From an uncultured Pseudomonas sp. (GTDB taxonomy: Bacteria > Pseudomonadota > Gammaproteobacteria > Pseudomonadales > Pseudomonadaceae): DNA of 64,000 nucleotides. The translations under genes were made by a program, and so were the position numbers. Shown piece by piece: positions 10,858 through 17,957 of the stretch (position 1 is the first letter of the stretch; every line of letters starts with the position of its first letter). The notes beneath the pieces are model-generated. The model was not told where the DNA came from. It searched no databases and was given only the letters and a program-made list of their open reading frames with translations. The DNA lies in assembly GCA_966186235.1 (NCBI GenBank), contig CBIFVM010000020.1:14503-78502 (forward strand). The letters are read 5' to 3'.

Positions 10858-13458
10858 TCAAGGCTCCTTGGGGGCGGTATTGCGCTGCAGCATTCGCTGC
10901 TGCACGCGCCGTGTGATGATGTCGTTGACCCGGCCGGTCAGCTGCAGGCTGGCGAGCAGGGTAGGGATGTCTTCCTCCAGGTTGATGTTGAAGTGAATCG
11001 GGCGGCCGTTCTCGATGGCCGGGTTCTGGCCTTCCAGACGCATGCCCAGGGTCAGTATGCCGTGCTGATCATAGTCGACCGAGCTGTTCAGGGTGGTGAA
11101 CCTGAAGTCCTCCAGGGACTGCGTCACCAACTGCATCGCCGGGTTGCTGCGGCCCAGGGCCTTGATCTTTTCGGAGCTGAACTTCAGGTAGCCGCCGGGC
11201 TGGCGGGCGGCGACGTGGCCGTCGTCTATCTCGATACCGTTCGGGCCCAGGCGCACTGGCAGGTCACCGTCCAGGGTGCCGCTGCCGCCCAGGCCTTCGG
11301 CGGGGTAGAGGGCGAACAGCTGCTGGAGTTCCAAGCCGCGAATCCGGATGGGAAACGATTGATTGGTTGCGCCCAGGTTCCATTGCCCCGGTGTCAGGGT
11401 GACCTCACCACCCATCAGCGCGGTGCGGGCCAGGTTCACCTCCAGCTGGCCCTGGTCGGCAGTGGCCAGCGGCGCGCTGTAACGCACGCGTGCTTCGGCA
11501 GGGCCGATGGGCAGGCCGGGGTTGGCCTGCTGCAGCTTCAGTTCGGGGATGTACAGCTCGAAACGCTGGTGCGCCAGCTTGAACTGCGCGCGTGCGTCCA
11601 GGCCGCTGAGTTCGGAGCGGTCGTAGATGCCGCCGAGGCCCTTGCCGGTCAGGTTCAGGTCGAGGGTCGGCGCGCTGCTGCCGGCGGCCAGCGTCAGGTT
11701 GGCATCGGCATTCAGGCGGCCGCTGTCGAGGTCGAGCAATTCGGGCCACTGCACCAGGGTCTTGGCCAGCGGGTTGCCGGAGCGCAGGAACAACTCGCCC
11801 AGGGTGGCCTCGAGCTGCAGGTCGTGTTTCGCGTCGAGGCTGGCAGTGAGGTCGAGTTGCAGTTCGCTGTCGTTGCTTAGTTTGCCCTGCAGGGTGCCGG
11901 CCCCGTCGGCGACGGCCAGCTGGCCTTGCAATCGCCAGCCCTGGGGTTTGAGGTTGGCCTGCTGCAGGCGCGTGGTGCTCAGGTTCAACGGGCCGTTGAA
12001 TTGCCAGCCTTGCAGGGCGCCGTCCTGCAGCGCCAGCTTCAACGTGCTGCCGCCCACCCCGGCCTGCAGTTTCTGCGCGCTCAGCACGGCGCCTTTCAGG
12101 CTGGCAGCCTGCAGTTGCGAACCCTGGCCAAGGTTCAGTTCGATTGCGCCGTCGTCGGCGTAGCCCGCCAGGTTCAGCGCGCTGCTCAGCTCGGTGGCTT
12201 GCCAGCCGGCCTGGTTCGCCCTGGCAGTGCGGGTGGTCAGGCGCGTATCGGCGAATTGCACCGCCCAGGGCGCCGAGCTGGCGACGGCCAGGCGGCCCTG
12301 CAAATCCAGGCGAGTGGTTCCGCTTAGCGCAGCGGTCAATTTCAAGGGCAGGCTGCGCTCGGCCAGTTCCGGGCGTAAGTCGGCCAGTGGCGTATCCGCC
12401 TGTACCTGCAGGTGCAGGGAGTCGCTGCGCAGCTCCGGCGGCAGCTTCGCCAGCCAGTCGGGATTGGGTTCGCTGAACTGCAGATCGGCCTCGATGCGCC
12501 TGGCGATCCACTGCGAGCCTTCATTATGAGCCGCCAGGGCCAGTTGCCCCTGTAGCAGGCCGATGCCGGGCACCGGCCACGGCTGCGGCAGGTTGCCGTG
12601 CACATCGAACTGGCCGGTCGCGGCCAGCAGGTTGTTCAAATCCGGCTGGCGGCGCGGCAGGTCGAGTTGCCAGGTGCCGGCGAGGCTTGCCTCGCCCGGT
12701 GCCGCCGGCCACTGCTTGCCGGCGGGCAGTGCCCAGGCGCCCAGCAGGTTCTGCAGGGTGACGGCTTGGGTAAGCTCGGTGGCGTCGAGCTGGCCGGTCC
12801 AGATCAGGCCGTCGCCGCGCTCCTGCAGGTGGCTGGTCAGGGTCGCCTGGGGCTGTCGATCCACCGCCAGGGTTACCTGCAGGTCGAGGGCGTCAATGCC
12901 TGGTTCGAGGTCGAGCGCGACGCTCACCACCTGCTCCTGCTGAGCGAGGTTCACGCTCAGGGCGATACGTTCATCGTCACTGCGCTGCAGGTCCAGGCTG
13001 CCACTGGCGCTGCACTGCCCGCGAGCGCAGGGCAGGGCGGCCTCGAGGTGAGCGATCGACAGACTGCGTGGCAGCAGGGCCAGCGGTGCGGCCAGGCGCT
13101 GCAGGTCGAGGTCGGGCGGTGGCGCGGCGTCCGGGGCATCTTCTTCGACCGGTCGCCAATCCAGCAACAGGCGGTCAATCGCGACGTGCCGCCACACCGG
13201 TAGGCTGAAGCCGAAGTCACGCCAGGCCAGGTGCAGATCATTACCGTGCAGTTCGAGCGTGCCGGCGCTGCTGCGCTGGCGCAGCGCCAGGCTGTCGATG
13301 CGCAGGCCGCCGTCCGAAAGCGAGGTGCCGTGCCAGTCGAGGATTTCGATGCCACTGCGTTGCAGCAGGTAGCGACCGCCCAGATAAGCGGCGGCCACCA
13401 GCACCAGCAGCAGGGCGAGTGTGACGGACAGTCGCAGCCAGATGCGGCGGCTGAGCAT
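10858..13458 (-). CDS. ydbH: YdbH (AsmA-like) intermembrane protein
   Basis: N-terminal TM anchor, long beta-rich body, C-terminal ...GRPIHFNINLEEDIPTLLASL; 866 aa upstream of ynbE. Confidence 0.85.
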   Translation of the reverse strand: MLSRRIWLRLSVTLALLLVLVAAAYLGGRYLLQRSGIEILDWHGTSLSDGGLRIDSLALRQRSSAGTLELHGNDLHLAWRDFGFSLPVWRHVAIDRLLLDWRPVEEDAPDAAPPPDLDLQRLAAPLALLPRSLSIAHLEAALPCARGQCSASGSLDLQRSDDERIALSVNLAQQEQVVSVALDLEPGIDALDLQVTLAVDRQPQATLTSHLQERGDGLIWTGQLDATELTQAVTLQNLLGAWALPAGKQWPAAPGEASLAGTWQLDLPRRQPDLNNLLAATGQFDVHGNLPQPWPVPGIGLLQGQLALAAHNEGSQWIARRIEADLQFSEPNPDWLAKLPPELRSDSLHLQVQADTPLADLRPELAERSLPLKLTAALSGTTRLDLQGRLAVASSAPWAVQFADTRLTTRTARANQAGWQATELSSALNLAGYADDGAIELNLGQGSQLQAASLKGAVLSAQKLQAGVGGSTLKLALQDGALQGWQFNGPLNLSTTRLQQANLKPQGWRLQGQLAVADGAGTLQGKLSNDSELQLDLTASLDAKHDLQLEATLGELFLRSGNPLAKTLVQWPELLDLDSGRLNADANLTLAAGSSAPTLDLNLTGKGLGGIYDRSELSGLDARAQFKLAHQRFELYIPELKLQQANPGLPIGPAEARVRYSAPLATADQGQLEVNLARTALMGGEVTLTPGQWNLGATNQSFPIRIRGLELQQLFALYPAEGLGGSGTLDGDLPVRLGPNGIEIDDGHVAARQPGGYLKFSSEKIKALGRSNPAMQLVTQSLEDFRFTTLNSSVDYDQHGILTLGMRLEGQNPAIENGRPIHFNINLEEDIPTLLASLQLTGRVNDIITRRVQQRMLQRNTAPKEP

Positions 13459-13677
13459 GGGCGTGGATCCAAGAACGGAGGAATCGGCGACGGTAACCCG
13501 AACCGGTATGGCCTGCCAAACCGGACGCGCCTGAATGGTGCTTTATACTTTTATGGCGTGCGCGTGACAGGAGCATCATTGGTGCATGGGCTGCATGCCC
13601 CGCCCGTCGTGGCGTGCCGAGATGTCAAGGCTGATTTCGCCCCGCAAAAGGGCATTTCAGAGGTCTCGCCGGCGGAC

Positions 13678-13937
13678 TTGTGCACAATAGCGAGGCAGCT
13701 TGTCAAGCCGCATATTGCCACTTGTCAAAAACCGAGCGATAGCGTAGGCGTAAATATAAGTTTATGAAAAATATAGGCTTTTTTGATGTGGTGAAAAAAT
13801 GAACAGTTTGAGCGGGAGGCCCATTCCATCAGTGTTAGGGGGTATTTCGCCCACCATACCCACAAAGTTATCCACAGCTTCTGTGGATTGTCATCTGCAG
13901 CCGCTCTGGGGCGGGCCGGGGCTTTACCTGTGAATAA
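13678..13937. promoter_or_regulatory. Cluster of DnaA boxes with an IHF-like site
   Basis: TTATCCACA 13868-13876 (9/9), TGTGAATAA 13929-13937 (9/9 reverse), TGTGGATTG 13882-13890 (7/9 reverse), ATACCCACA 13856-13864 (7/9), TTGTGCACA 13678-13686 (8/9); IHF-like TAAGTTTATGAAA 13757-13769 in an AT-rich tract. Confidence 0.65.
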
Positions 13938-13983
13938 AAAAGAGTAGAGTGGCGCGCCTGTTCCAGAGCCCCGCTTTAGCCTT

Positions 13984-14390
13984 ATGCCCCGCGTTTTACC
14001 CCGCAGTGAACTCCATACGCTTCCCGTCCATACCCAGGTTCCCGTCCGCGTCGCCGCCTGGCTGCTGGACAGCCCGCGCCTTGGCCATGCACCCAGCGTG
14101 AAACGCATCGCCGGCCGTCTGCTCAAGCAGCCTGCGCGCCGCGGTGTGGTGCAGGCGCAAAGTCGGCTGGGCCAGATGCTCTGCCGCGAATGCGGCAATA
14201 CCCGTGACCGGCGCATCGGCCTGGAGCTGCTACGCCAGGCCGCGCGAGCTGGCGATAGCCATGCGCAGCTGGAGCTGGGGCGTCTGTATTGCCAGCCGCG
14301 CACCCTCGAGCCAGAGCAGGCCGGCATTGGCTGGAGCTGGCGGCGCTGCAAGGGCACGACGAGGCCCGGGATCTGTTGCGGCTTCTCTAG
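13984..14390 (+). pseudogene. Sel1-like repeat protein with an apparent -1 frameshift near the 3' end
   Basis: AQSRLGQML, AARAGDSHAQLELGRLY; adding one C at 14321-14322 restores ARHWLELAALQGHDEARDLLRLL and TAG at 14388-14390. Confidence 0.8.
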
Positions 14391-14462
14391 AGGTGCCCTG
14401 TTGTAGCCGCTGCCGCGCGGCCCGCGCGGTTATACTGCCGGCAGTCTTGCCTGGATGCCTTT

Positions 14463-15950
14463 ATGCCTTTCGATCTCCTGACCCTGTTGCCGGCCTTTCT
14501 GGTCGGCGCACTGCTGGCTGCCGTTCCTTTATGGCTGCGCATGGCTGCCGCCCTGCGACAGGCCGAGGACATGCGTCTGCAATCAGGGCTGGCCCAGGAG
14601 CGCATGAATGCGGCGCAGCTGGCCCAGGCCGGCCTCAGTGCGCAGCTGGACAACTGCCGCGACGAGCTTGCCGAGATCCTCGAAATCAAGGCTGATCAGC
14701 AGGCCGAACTGGCCGCCCTGCGCCGCGAAACCCACTTGCTGCAGAACGACCTGCAGCTGGCCCGCGAGCAGCTCGAGGGCGCGCAGGCCCTGCGCGAGCG
14801 CCAGGAGGCCGAGCTGCGTCGCCTGGACAGCGAGCGGGCCGGGCTGGCCGCCGAACTGCACGAACAGCAGGAGAGCCACCAGCAGCGTCTGGAGGATCTG
14901 CAAGGCGCCCGTGATGCCTTGCGTGCGCAGTTCGCCGAACTGGCCGGCAAGATCTTCGATGAGCGCGAACAGCGTTTCTCGGAAACCAGCCAGCAGCGCC
15001 TGGGGCAGCTACTCGATCCGCTCAAGGAGCGCATCCAGGCCTTCGAGAAGCGCGTCGAGGAAAGCTACCAGCAGGAGGCGCGCGAGCGCTTTTCTCTGGG
15101 CAAGGAGCTGGAGCGTCTGCAGGGGCTCAATCAGCGCCTGAGCGAGGAGGCGATGAACCTCACCCAGGCGCTCAAGGGCCAGAAGACCCAGGGCAACTGG
15201 GGTGAGCTGGTGCTCGAACGCATACTCGAACATGCCGGCCTGCAGAAGGGCCGCGAGTACCACACCCAGGTCAGCCTGAAGAGTGCCGAGGGCGAGCGTT
15301 TCCAGCCGGACGTGTTGATCCAGCTGCCGGGCGACAAGCAGGTGGTGGTCGATGCCAAGGTCAGCCTCACCGCCTATCAGCAGTACGTGTCGGCCAGCGA
15401 GGAAGCGGTGCGGCAGGTGGCATTGAAACAGCACGTGCTATCGCTGCGCAGCCACCTCAAGGGCCTGTCGCTCAAGGATTACCAGCACCTCGACGGGCTG
15501 CACAGCCTGGATTTCGTGCTGCTTTTCGTGCCGATCGAGGCCGCATTCGCAGCGGCTTTGCAGGCTGATCCGGGGCTGTTCCAGGAAGCCTTCGACCAGC
15601 ACATCGTGATCGTCAGCCCGACCACGCTGCTGGCGACCCTGCGGGTGATCGACAGCCTGTGGCGCCAGGAACGGCAGAGCCAGAACGCTCGGGAAATCGC
15701 CGAGCGGGCAGGGGCGCTGTACGACAAGTTCGTGGCCTTCATTCAGGATCTGGACGAAGTCGGCATGCGCCTGCAGCAGCTCGACAAGGCCTATTCCGGC
15801 GCGCGCAACAAGCTGGTCGACGGCCGTGGCAACCTCATCAGCCGCGCTGAAAACCTCAAGCTGCTCGGCGCCCGGGCCAGCAAGAGCCTGCCCCCCGAGC
15901 TACTCGAACGTGCAGCCGGGCTGCCGCTGGATGAGCCGCTGGACGACTGA
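14463..15950 (+). CDS. rmuC: DNA recombination protein RmuC
   Basis: N-terminal TM, coiled coil, KTQGNWGELVLERILE, QPDVLIQLPGDKQVVVDAKVSL, FVLLFVPIE. Confidence 0.95.
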   Translation: MPFDLLTLLPAFLVGALLAAVPLWLRMAAALRQAEDMRLQSGLAQERMNAAQLAQAGLSAQLDNCRDELAEILEIKADQQAELAALRRETHLLQNDLQLAREQLEGAQALRERQEAELRRLDSERAGLAAELHEQQESHQQRLEDLQGARDALRAQFAELAGKIFDEREQRFSETSQQRLGQLLDPLKERIQAFEKRVEESYQQEARERFSLGKELERLQGLNQRLSEEAMNLTQALKGQKTQGNWGELVLERILEHAGLQKGREYHTQVSLKSAEGERFQPDVLIQLPGDKQVVVDAKVSLTAYQQYVSASEEAVRQVALKQHVLSLRSHLKGLSLKDYQHLDGLHSLDFVLLFVPIEAAFAAALQADPGLFQEAFDQHIVIVSPTTLLATLRVIDSLWRQERQSQNAREIAERAGALYDKFVAFIQDLDEVGMRLQQLDKAYSGARNKLVDGRGNLISRAENLKLLGARASKSLPPELLERAAGLPLDEPLDD

Positions 15951-16130
15951 TCCCTCCCTTCCGCATTCGCGCGGTGCCGTGACGCCAGGGCTGGACGCAG
16001 CCCAAATCTCGTCTATCTTGTCGGTTGTCATACTTCTTGTGGGTATGGTGATTGCGCTGTTCGCCGTATGGCGTATTGCCTCGGTATCTTCAGATTATTC
16101 AATGGATTGGCCATAACAAGGATAACAATC

Positions 16131-17957
16131 ATGCCGCTCATCAAGCGCCTTTTTACGCCTGTTTCTCTAATTAAATCCCATCGATCAAAGTGCGTTGTCA
16201 TACCACTGGTTTTGCTGGCCAGCGGTGCCGCCCTGGCGCTGGAGGCGCCGCCGAACATCCAGGTGCCGACCCTGGCCTATGACGACCGCCAGATCATTCT
16301 GGTCTGGGAGAAACCGCAAGATGCCGCTGGCATCGTCGACTATCACGTGTACATGGATGGTAAAAAGCTGGGCAGCGCCAACGCCAACAACGACCAGCAT
16401 TCACCGGCCAAGCCGTATATCGACCAGTTCTACGAGGCTGACGAGGCAAATTTCCATCACCGCATCGCCATCCACAATTTCACCGTCGATGGCCTCAAAC
16501 CGGAGACGGAATACCGCTTCACCGTGCGCTCGGTGGATGCCGAGGGGCGCGAGTCGGCCGACAGCCCGGTGCTGGTGCAGCGCACCACGGCGGTCCCCGA
16601 GGTATTCAACGTCGAGGCCCGGGGCGCCAAGGGCGACGGCAAGACGCTCAATACCGCGGCCATCCAGAAGACCATCGATGCCTGCTCGCTGAACTGCAAG
16701 GTGCTGATTCCGGCCGGGGTGTTCAAGACCGGTGCGCTGTACCTGAAAAGCAACATGACCCTGGAGATCGCCGAGGGCGCCACGTTGCTGGGCTCTGAGC
16801 GCAGCGAGGATTACCCGCTGCAGGGCTACATCCAGTACCCGTATTCGACCATGGTGCGTCCGGCCTCGCTGATCAACGCGCTGCCGCGCGATCCGCGCCA
16901 GCACCAGTCGTTCGAGAACATCCGCATCGTCGGCAAGGGCACCATCGACGGCAACGGCTGGAAGCGCAACGACGACAGCCAGGACGAGCTCGGCAAGCCG
17001 CTGCCGTTCTACCGGGCCAGTGACAATACCCGCTACAGGGAGGACGGCATCCTGTCCAGGGATCAGGTCGAGAAGGCCGTGGCGCGTGGCATCATCGTCA
17101 AGGACGCCTACGGCCAGATGCGCTCTTCACTGATGACCCTGCGCAACGTCAGGAACGTGTTCTACGGCGGCTTCACCGTGCTCAACCCGGCCTACCACGG
17201 GATCATGAACCTGGAAACCGAGAACGTGGTGATGGCGGGTACCGTGCACAAGACCTACGACGCCAACAACGGCGACGGCATCGAGTTCGCCAACAGCAAG
17301 GGCGCGATGGTCTTCAACAACTTTTTCGACACGGGCGACGATTGCGTCAACTTCGCGTCTGGCACCGGCGCTGGCGCCGCGAAACAGCCGCCCCAGGAGG
17401 ATGCCTGGATCTTCAACAACTTCTTCCGCCGCGGCCACGGCATGGTGGTCGCCGGCAGCCATACCGGTGGCTGGATCCAGAACATCCTCGCCGAAGACAA
17501 CGTGTCCGACGGCACCGACACCGGCCTGCGCATGAAGAGCACCAATTTCATGGGCGGCGGCGCGCGCAACGTCACCTTCCGCGACTCGGCGATCCGCAAC
17601 CCGGTCAAGCAGGGGGTGATCATGACCCTGGATTACCACGACCCCAACGCCATTCTCGACTACGAGCGCTCGACCGTGCCGGGGCAGTTCCGCGATATCC
17701 GCGTGAGCAACGTGACGGTGGAGGGTGCCGCCGGCGCGGCGATCCAGGTCAAGGGCGACAGCGCCCACGAGGCCTTCCACGAGAACGTCGCCTTCGAGCA
17801 GGTGCGCTTCAAGGGCGGGGCGGGTGCGCAGATCGACGGCCTGCGCGACTCGAGTTTCACCGACGTCAGCTTCGTCGACACCCAGGGCGAAGCCTGGAAC
17901 ATCAAGGGCAGCGAGGGCTTGCGCTTCGACCGGGTCGAGCCGCAACCCAAGCAATAA
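16131..17957 (+). CDS. pehX: GH28 exo-poly-alpha-galacturonosidase with N-terminal fibronectin-III domain (PehX-like)
   Basis: Signal peptide ending ALA, FN3 segment (WEKP...YHVY...GLKPETEYRFTVRSV), GH28 motifs NGDG, GDD, GHG, RMK; 608 aa. Confidence 0.85.
   Translation: MPLIKRLFTPVSLIKSHRSKCVVIPLVLLASGAALALEAPPNIQVPTLAYDDRQIILVWEKPQDAAGIVDYHVYMDGKKLGSANANNDQHSPAKPYIDQFYEADEANFHHRIAIHNFTVDGLKPETEYRFTVRSVDAEGRESADSPVLVQRTTAVPEVFNVEARGAKGDGKTLNTAAIQKTIDACSLNCKVLIPAGVFKTGALYLKSNMTLEIAEGATLLGSERSEDYPLQGYIQYPYSTMVRPASLINALPRDPRQHQSFENIRIVGKGTIDGNGWKRNDDSQDELGKPLPFYRASDNTRYREDGILSRDQVEKAVARGIIVKDAYGQMRSSLMTLRNVRNVFYGGFTVLNPAYHGIMNLETENVVMAGTVHKTYDANNGDGIEFANSKGAMVFNNFFDTGDDCVNFASGTGAGAAKQPPQEDAWIFNNFFRRGHGMVVAGSHTGGWIQNILAEDNVSDGTDTGLRMKSTNFMGGGARNVTFRDSAIRNPVKQGVIMTLDYHDPNAILDYERSTVPGQFRDIRVSNVTVEGAAGAAIQVKGDSAHEAFHENVAFEQVRFKGGAGAQIDGLRDSSFTDVSFVDTQGEAWNIKGSEGLRFDRVEPQPKQ

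Follow-up and report, generated by a model that had tools for sequence, protein, structure and literature searches.

A DARS-like three-box DnaA element upstream of sel1–rmuC as a candidate DnaA-reactivating site of Pseudomonas

A 64-kb stretch of DNA from a Pseudomonas of the Phytopseudomonas group (the whole stretch is called the window below, and all coordinates refer to it) raises the question of what role a set of closely spaced DnaA boxes could have in an intergenic region between ydbH and the gene pair sel1–rmuC. The site is intergenic, and neither the window nor any of the related loci fetched for comparison encodes DnaA, DnaN or RecF (tblastn). The original prediction had stated that dnaA, gidA and parAB are not nearby; this holds for dnaA, whereas gidA and parAB were not searched for. 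The boxes form one end of a non-coding module of about 215 bp (13675–13890) that is conserved across Pseudomonas. DnaA very probably binds this module, which is a strong candidate for the DnaA-reactivating site of Pseudomonas, and the chance that it is an element of the DARS (DnaA-reactivating sequence) type with DARS2-like architecture is judged to be about even. Regeneration of ATP-DnaA beyond Escherichia coli and its close relatives is largely unknown; within the accessible text of the sources searched, DARS are described for E. coli and E. coli-proximal species, and DARS-like sequences for Vibrio cholerae at the same loci. In the literature searched, no DARS in Pseudomonas and no DnaA boxes near rmuC were found, although the founding DARS paper might mention one. 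What would be new here is thus a candidate DARS-type core at a new locus (rmuC), an element of a known kind.

The core (13856–13890) reads ATACCCACA-AAG-TTATCCACA-GCTTC-TGTGGATTG, that is, a weak box III, a gap of 3 bp, a consensus box II, a gap of 5 bp and an inverted box I (Table 1). In P. putida, TTATCCACA, the sequence of box II, serves as the high-affinity DnaA box (PMC4285127). Single DnaA boxes are not enriched in the window (five matches with at most one mismatch, against 3.7 expected), so the cluster of the original prediction, all of whose motifs lie exactly where it had placed them, does not stand out by box density; what is unique in the window is the three-box arrangement. This can be expressed as a DARS-geometry score, in which each position is tested for a box, 3 bp, a second box, 5 bp and an inverted box (III-3-II-5-I), 27 being the highest possible value. 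On this scale the element reaches 23, against 16 for the next independent site in the 64-kb window. Across the 792 kb of Pseudomonas DNA made up by the window and 80 related loci, scores of 21 or more come from this element alone, the other Pseudomonas copies of which reach up to 25 (range 23–25).

The core of a DARS consists of three 9-bp DnaA boxes, of which box I is opposite in direction to boxes II and III; in E. coli, boxes I and II stand head-to-head across a 5-bp gap, and DARS1 and DARS2 do not differ in spacing (PMC6868365, PMC5742627). The DARS1 (bioD–uvrB), DARS2 (rppH–mutH) and datA regions of E. coli K-12 were fetched and scored in the same way. On its other strand, DARS1 reads TAATACACA-TGG-TTATCCACA-GGAAT-AGTGGATAA, and DARS2 reads TTCTTCACA-ACT-CTATCCACA-GAAAA-GGTGAATAA; the boundaries of the DARS2 core are confirmed by published deletion primers (PMC4585315). 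The scores are 24 for DARS1, 22 for DARS2 and 19 for datA. The window core has the box number, order, orientation and 9-3-9-5-9 spacing of both DARS, and the DARS-like geometry that had been predicted is correct to the base pair. As in DARS1, box II is a perfect consensus, the sequence feature of the box that nucleates assembly, and the site is a non-coding one ahead of a DNA-repair gene. On these sequence-level features, nothing that marks a DARS core appears to be missing. The element differs from DARS1 in its locus, which is uvrB in E. coli and rmuC here, and in its direction, since toward the downstream gene the boxes read I-II-III in E. coli and III-II-I in Pseudomonas. In addition, DARS1 is about 101 bp long and independent of accessory proteins (PMC5742627), whereas in Pseudomonas a long extension with rigid spacing adjoins the core. 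DARS-like sequences of V. cholerae are likewise examples of a DARS core outside E. coli in a gamma-proteobacterium, but they are reported at uvrB and mutH, as in E. coli (PMC6090056, citing Fujimitsu 2009), whereas the Pseudomonas element lies at a new locus. A separate observation concerns E. coli K-12 itself: the intergenic region of the DARS2 core holds, just ahead of mutH and about 280 bp from that core, another triplet of DARS geometry, TCTTACACC-ATG-TTATCCACA-GAAAG-CTGGGATAA (L082, 1452–1488; 20/27), which may correspond to the dispensable DnaA boxes IV–VI of the literature.

Conservation of the core was assessed in 80 related loci fetched by way of RmuC, which sample the P. straminea/flavescens, anguilliseptica, mendocina, resinovorans/otitidis, fluorescens and syringae groups; loci of P. 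aeruginosa and P. putida fall outside this sample, as two protein searches returned closer relatives only. The arrangement is exact in 75 of the 80 loci, and because three of the five loci without it are contigs that end early, this amounts to 75 of 77 informative species; the core is also present in three additional complete genomes. The three core boxes and their spacing are retained at this junction, while rmuC DNA itself is just about 80% identical between the window and the 75 carrier species. All 75 loci carry TTATCCACA-N5-TGTGGATT[G/A] together with a third box 3 bp upstream. Box II is identical in every carrier, a result that is partly circular in a set picked by a regular expression, but an alignment based on BLAST gives equal invariance. 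Box I is TGTGGATT[G/A] throughout, at a constant gap of 5 bp. Box III varies (TTGTCCACT, TTATCCACG, ATACCCACA, TTTTTCACA, TTCTTCACA and others), and its register never shifts: T2, C6, A7 and C8 are retained, and positions 3, 5 and 9 are free to drift. Because the sequence drifts as the register and these four positions stay, the pattern is indicative of selection for a weak DnaA box, beyond plain sequence inertia.

The same invariance could be read differently, with another dimeric regulator binding the palindrome ATCCACAG-CTT-CTGTGGAT and the likeness to DnaA boxes being coincidental. The arms do form a perfect 8-bp inverted repeat that is invariant. Nevertheless, this reading is quite improbable, since the invariant flanks are asymmetric (TT before box II, TTG or TTA after box I), the eighth arm position varies without compensation, a third half-site is held in register with DnaA-like constraints, and the three-box design recurs, with the full DnaA consensus, in E. 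coli DARS and in many taxa.

The core is only one end of the conserved sequence. An alignment of 69 dereplicated species gives a block map in which a palindrome (TTGTGCACAA, 13678–13687), an AT-rich centre and the three-box core follow one another as conserved blocks amid variable spacers. The near-palindrome had been noticed in the original prediction, and it is real, conserved and at a fixed distance from the core. Within its near-invariant block GACTTGTGCACAAT, TTGTGCACA reads on both strands and has one mismatch to TTWTNCACA. The start of TGTGCACA lies 174–178 bp from box III in 71 species, at exactly 175 bp in 59 of them and at 177 bp in the window. The AT-rich tract (13700–13850) had also been singled out; its G+C content is 36–37%, as against about 67% in the flanks and the window, and its AT-rich blocks are conserved at a fixed distance from the core. 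From TGGTGAAAAAA, the start of block E, to box III the distance is exactly 67 bp in all 71 species in which the motif was matched, and the 43 bp that separate block E from box III are just 55% alike across species. Block E also contains GGTGAAAAA, which is TTTTTCACC on the other strand, a DnaA-box-like 9-mer, and, together with block D, it overlaps a weak sigma-70-like minus-strand promoter. Such fixed length over free sequence would mark a stereospecific protein–DNA complex, and because conservation is genus-wide and the internal spacing is fixed, a functional protein–DNA architecture is suggested. At the far edge of the module, the stem-loop-like block at 13639–13653 is retained even where the neighbouring gene differs.

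Table 1. Positions of the DnaA boxes, the conserved blocks and the flanking genes in the window
Feature	Coordinates	Strand	Description
DnaA box III ATACCCACA	13856–13864	+	7/9 to consensus; weak; same orientation as box II, 3 bp away
DnaA box II TTATCCACA	13868–13876	+	Perfect high-affinity consensus
DnaA box I TGTGGATTG	13882–13890	−	CAATCCACA on the other strand; inverted to box II across the 5-bp gap GCTTC
Palindrome block GACTTGTGCACAAT	13675–13689		Near-invariant; distal arm of the module
CTTGTCAAG	13699–13707		Moderately conserved (alignment)
AT-rich block D, TAAGTTTATGAAAAATAT then T-run	13757–13786		Genus consensus TTAAGTCAATGAAAAATAT..TTTTTT; candidate site for a DNA-bending protein
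Block E, TGGTGAAAAAA..CAGTTTGAG	13789–13812		TGGTGAAAAAA..CAGTTTGAC in the alignment; conserved; part of the AT-rich centre
Stem-loop-like block GCCCCGCAAAAGGGC	13639–13653		GCCC-N-GAAAAA-GGGC; genus-wide, at the far edge of the module
Promoter-like block	13923–13958	+	−35 TTTACC (13923–13928), 16-bp spacer, −10 TAGAGT (13945–13950), then GGCGCGCC; conserved
Intergenic region ydbH/Sel1-like ORF	13459–13983		525 bp
ydbH	10858–13458	−	Flanks the intergenic region
Sel1-repeat ORF (open reading frame)	13984–14406	+	First gene 3′ of the element; context only
rmuC (DNA recombination protein)	14463–15950	+	Pfam RmuC, E = 1.2e-107; linked to the element genus-wide

This larger module brings the element closer to DARS2, with which it shares the core geometry and an extended arm on the box III side whose elements lie at conserved distances. 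In DARS2, IHF binds about equidistantly between the core and the Fis site; the AT-rich centre of the Pseudomonas module, a candidate bending site, lies about 95 bp from the dyad of boxes I and II on one side and about 100 bp from the palindrome on the other. The box III of some Pseudomonas species, TTCTTCACA, is identical to that of DARS2. There are also differences: the IHF and Fis sites of DARS2 were established by experiment, whereas the AT-rich blocks of Pseudomonas fit the IHF consensus poorly; the distal element in Pseudomonas is a DnaA-like palindrome and no recognisable Fis site; mutH is not part of the context; and the core boxes of DARS2 are weaker than those of Pseudomonas.

The direction in which the element acts on DnaA could in principle be the opposite one. 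A negative site would promote DnaA-ATP hydrolysis, as datA does, or titrate DnaA as a high-affinity sink. Like the module, datA is a non-coding cluster of DnaA boxes that acts on the nucleotide state of DnaA and has an AT-rich bending site between boxes, and the AT-rich centre between two DnaA-like arms recalls its succession of boxes, IHF site and further box; a consensus box accompanied by auxiliary boxes would also suit a sink. However, the head-to-head pair at 5 bp with a third box at 3 bp is the signature of DARS and is absent from datA, and the three to five boxes of the element are few for a sink. Because E. coli datA scores at best 19/27 and its inverted pair has a gap of 3 bp, DARS is favoured over datA, and a negative site is improbable. 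The DARS half of the earlier DARS- or datA-like proposal thus agrees with the order, orientation and gaps of the boxes, whereas the element does not have the geometry of the datA arrangement. In datA (L203, 1907–1927), the head-to-head pair reads TTATTCACA-AGC-TGTGGATGA, and gap length (3 bp versus 5 bp) may separate the datA and DARS kinds.

Conservation of non-coding DNA may also reflect a transcript or a short peptide. A small RNA or small protein encoded by the conserved sequence would accord with the transcription of the region in a relative and with two short ORFs, a recurring minus-strand ORF of 20 amino acids (MGLxVKLxIFSP...) and a plus-strand ORF of 44 amino acids in the window, but this is very unlikely. 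There is no Rfam match (cmscan) at E values up to 1 for the region and up to 0.1 for a related locus, and RNAalifold, applied to 25 diverse species, finds no compensatory pair (covariation term −0.26). The candidates themselves were rejected: the only structures that RNAalifold gives are a weak stem and a hairpin of boxes I and II that does not vary; in about a quarter of the species the 20-amino-acid ORF is cut short, shifted or missing, and its codon positions 1 and 2 vary while position 3 is fixed; and the ATG of the 44-amino-acid ORF (13799–13933) is not conserved. Least probable of all, at a very low level, is a cryptic or secondary replication origin. DnaA boxes do adjoin an AT-rich tract, but they are few (three of strong or medium quality), no array and no repeats of an unwinding element were seen, the origin-linked genes dnaA, dnaN and recF are absent from the window and the fetched loci, and the element is not organized as an oriC-type origin, in which an array of DnaA boxes accompanies an unwinding element, usually next to dnaA, dnaN, rpmH or gidA. 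Identity with oriC2 of P. aeruginosa was rejected, as oriC2 is about 5 kb from oriC1, at a different locus.

If the element acts as a DARS, its action can be modelled on that of DARS1 and DARS2 in E. coli. ADP-DnaA would first bind the consensus box II, from where it would recruit two further protomers, one to box I, head-to-head over the 5-bp gap, and one to box III, head-to-tail. The head-to-head contact between AAA+ domains would open the nucleotide pocket, with release of ADP, and apo-DnaA would leave and rebind ATP, such that initiation potential would rise; these nucleotide-exchange steps are those of the model proposed for E. coli (PMC6868365). A bending protein (IHF, Fis or HU) at the AT-rich centre might loop the distal DnaA-like palindrome onto the core. 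Such looping would resemble that of DARS2, in which IHF acts with Fis; the AT-rich centre is about equidistant from the core and the palindrome. DARS action in E. coli depends on particular DnaA residues, among them Gln208 and Leu290. DnaA binding is very likely, and ADP release, looping and an effect on initiation are predicted by this analogy.

The main rival to a DARS is a DnaA operator, that is, boxes that repress or activate the sel1–rmuC promoter or a divergent one and thereby tie a recombination gene to the replication cycle. The gene layout at this junction is as originally described, and the Sel1 ORF is preceded, at about 35 bp, by a promoter-like block. At 13945–13958 the −10 region of this block does not vary and runs into the G+C-rich palindrome GGCGCGCC, and the spacer before it holds an A-run that is likewise invariant; as a promoter design this is unusual, and its conservation is strong. 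A fourth DnaA box, TGTGAATAA (13929–13937), had been included in the predicted cluster, but it sits in the spacer of this promoter-like element and is not conserved. In favour of an operator, the core precedes the conserved −10 block by about 50–65 bp and accompanies (sel1-)rmuC in every carrier species, similar cores in metagenomes are often found at the 5′ ends of priA and xseA, and RNA contigs from a relative of P. brassicacearum show that the module is transcribed, these contigs being unstranded and placing no start; for the species of the window itself, no RNA runs exist.

The distances are less favourable to an operator. From core to promoter there are 49–51 bp in the group of the window and 63–66 bp in most species, values that differ by about 14 bp and hence by a non-integral number of helical turns, and 156, 187–188 or 290 bp in five species, and the promoter block is absent in about six. 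The promoter block occurs without the module in L014 and L058, and the module without the promoter block or sel1 in L051, L070 and L075; the P. syringae group lacks sel1 and retains the internal spacing of the module, and in L041 the module and sel1 are inverted jointly relative to rmuC. As module and promoter stand at variable distances and are also found one without the other, the module is a unit separable from the promoter. An operator would also leave unexplained both the exact DARS spacing and a rigid 215-bp architecture that reaches away from the promoter. Control of transcription as the sole function is therefore rather unlikely, but it stays a live explanation because the module is always upstream of (sel1-)rmuC. 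Moreover, a DARS and the control of rmuC transcription are not mutually exclusive, and E. coli DARS1 is also located upstream of a gene, uvrB.

Several points weigh against a DARS. The invariable position of the core upstream of (sel1-)rmuC is one that a purely transcriptional role would explain, and positional orthology with DARS1 (uvrB) or DARS2 (mutH) is lacking, the neighbours of the element being ydbH or other genes on one side and sel1–rmuC on the other. For a DARS, a place away from oriC at a conserved relative distance would be expected; the coordinates of the element along six large records range inconsistently from 15 to 92% of the record, with no dnaA as an anchor. Box I (CAATCCACA) departs from the consensus at two positions, and the rmuC loci L014 and L058 truly lack the core. 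The AT-rich block D, which the original prediction had called IHF-like, matches the IHF consensus WATCAANNNNTTR at 7–8 of 9 positions at best (by eye), and the key positions are not conserved, so that the consensus lends this label no support; no Fis consensus match was seen in the module blocks by eye, nor was any convincing consensus for sigma-32, sigma-54, LexA, Fis or IHF in blocks B to F by the same inspection. Lastly, no chromatin immunoprecipitation or other occupancy data for DnaA in Pseudomonas were found in the literature.

The occurrence of the core design outside Pseudomonas was assessed by a scan of metagenomes with the pattern CAC-N4-TTATCCACA-N5-TGTGGAT, which has 19 specified bases and for which a handful of chance matches is expected, a rough estimate given that the size of the collection is not known. 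At least 119 metagenome contigs, with G+C contents of 31–73%, were matched. The design of these cores (L083–L162) is a DnaA-like box, 3 bp, TTATCCACA, 5 bp and TGTGGATAA. Among the matches listed, the last two bases of box I are AA in about 72 of 83 and the last base of box III is A in 76 of 83, box III has T at position 4 in 67 of 83, and the 5-bp gap begins with G in 66 of 83; the unspecified positions thus fit the DnaA consensus. As for their neighbours, again among the matches listed, 12 loci lie after a hemW-like radical-SAM gene and before a citrate synthase or M48 peptidase gene, eight lie between xseA and exbB, seven upstream of priA and one beside recG, and three fetched contigs are of the Pseudomonas rmuC type. 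The hemW–gltA type comes from uncultured Gammaproteobacteria. No dnaA is present on the fetched contigs with a metagenome core among these matches. As a separate observation, the gene divergent from the module in E. mendocina (CP148074.1; L204, 1–182) belongs to the citrate-synthase family, which echoes the uncultured Gammaproteobacteria (L093 and others) in which the core precedes citrate synthase.

The metagenome result suggests a widespread element tied to DNA-repair and restart genes. Because these neighbours join uvrB, mutH and rmuC, an association of DARS cores with repair genes appears to be a repeated one. On this basis, a broader reading can be offered tentatively, though it is doubtful as a whole: the III-3-II-5-I core may not be confined to enterobacteria but be a cis-element widespread in Pseudomonadota, and perhaps beyond, that has repeatedly been placed beside repair or restart genes (uvrB, mutH, rmuC, priA, xseA, recG and rdgB–hemW) with lineage-specific arms, the rmuC module being the main DnaA-recharging site of Pseudomonas. 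If this is true, initiator activity would be linked to the state of DNA repair in a bacterium without the Dam/SeqA/mutH context of E. coli. The metagenome result also suggests a general principle. The Pseudomonas candidate is a well-defined, easily mutated target for the study of whether the DnaA nucleotide cycle is under the same kind of control in a genus of major environmental, plant-associated and clinical importance, and it bears on how the IHF–Fis arm of DARS2 can be replaced and on why such sites adjoin DNA-repair genes.

Some further features of the locus touch on neighbouring genes. In the P. brassicacearum group (L063, 2301–3056), about 750 bp that are absent from the window lie between the module and the next gene; this stretch is 88–96% conserved in the P. 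fluorescens group and 73–79% in the P. syringae group, contains a 74-amino-acid ORF alone, has no Rfam match and shows an RNA contig depth about 4-fold above that of rmuC, so that an RNA or a small protein, so far unannotated, could be encoded there. The Sel1-like ORF of the window encodes 140 amino acids, and past residue 113 (divergence from near 14322) its tail is unlike that of any relative; the relatives all have 135 amino acids and the C-terminal end ...ARHWLELAALQG..LL, which implies a frameshift in the window copy, either genuine or a sequencing error. The RmuC of the window shares 99% identity with the RmuC of Pseudomonas sp. PA15 and PDM11. An ORF 100 bp 3′ of rmuC (16068–17957) combines a glycosyl hydrolase family 28 (polygalacturonase-like) domain with fibronectin type III and pectate-lyase-like beta-helix domains, which fits a plant-associated organism, and the DNA runs that contain the region are mostly plant, silage and leaf metagenomes.

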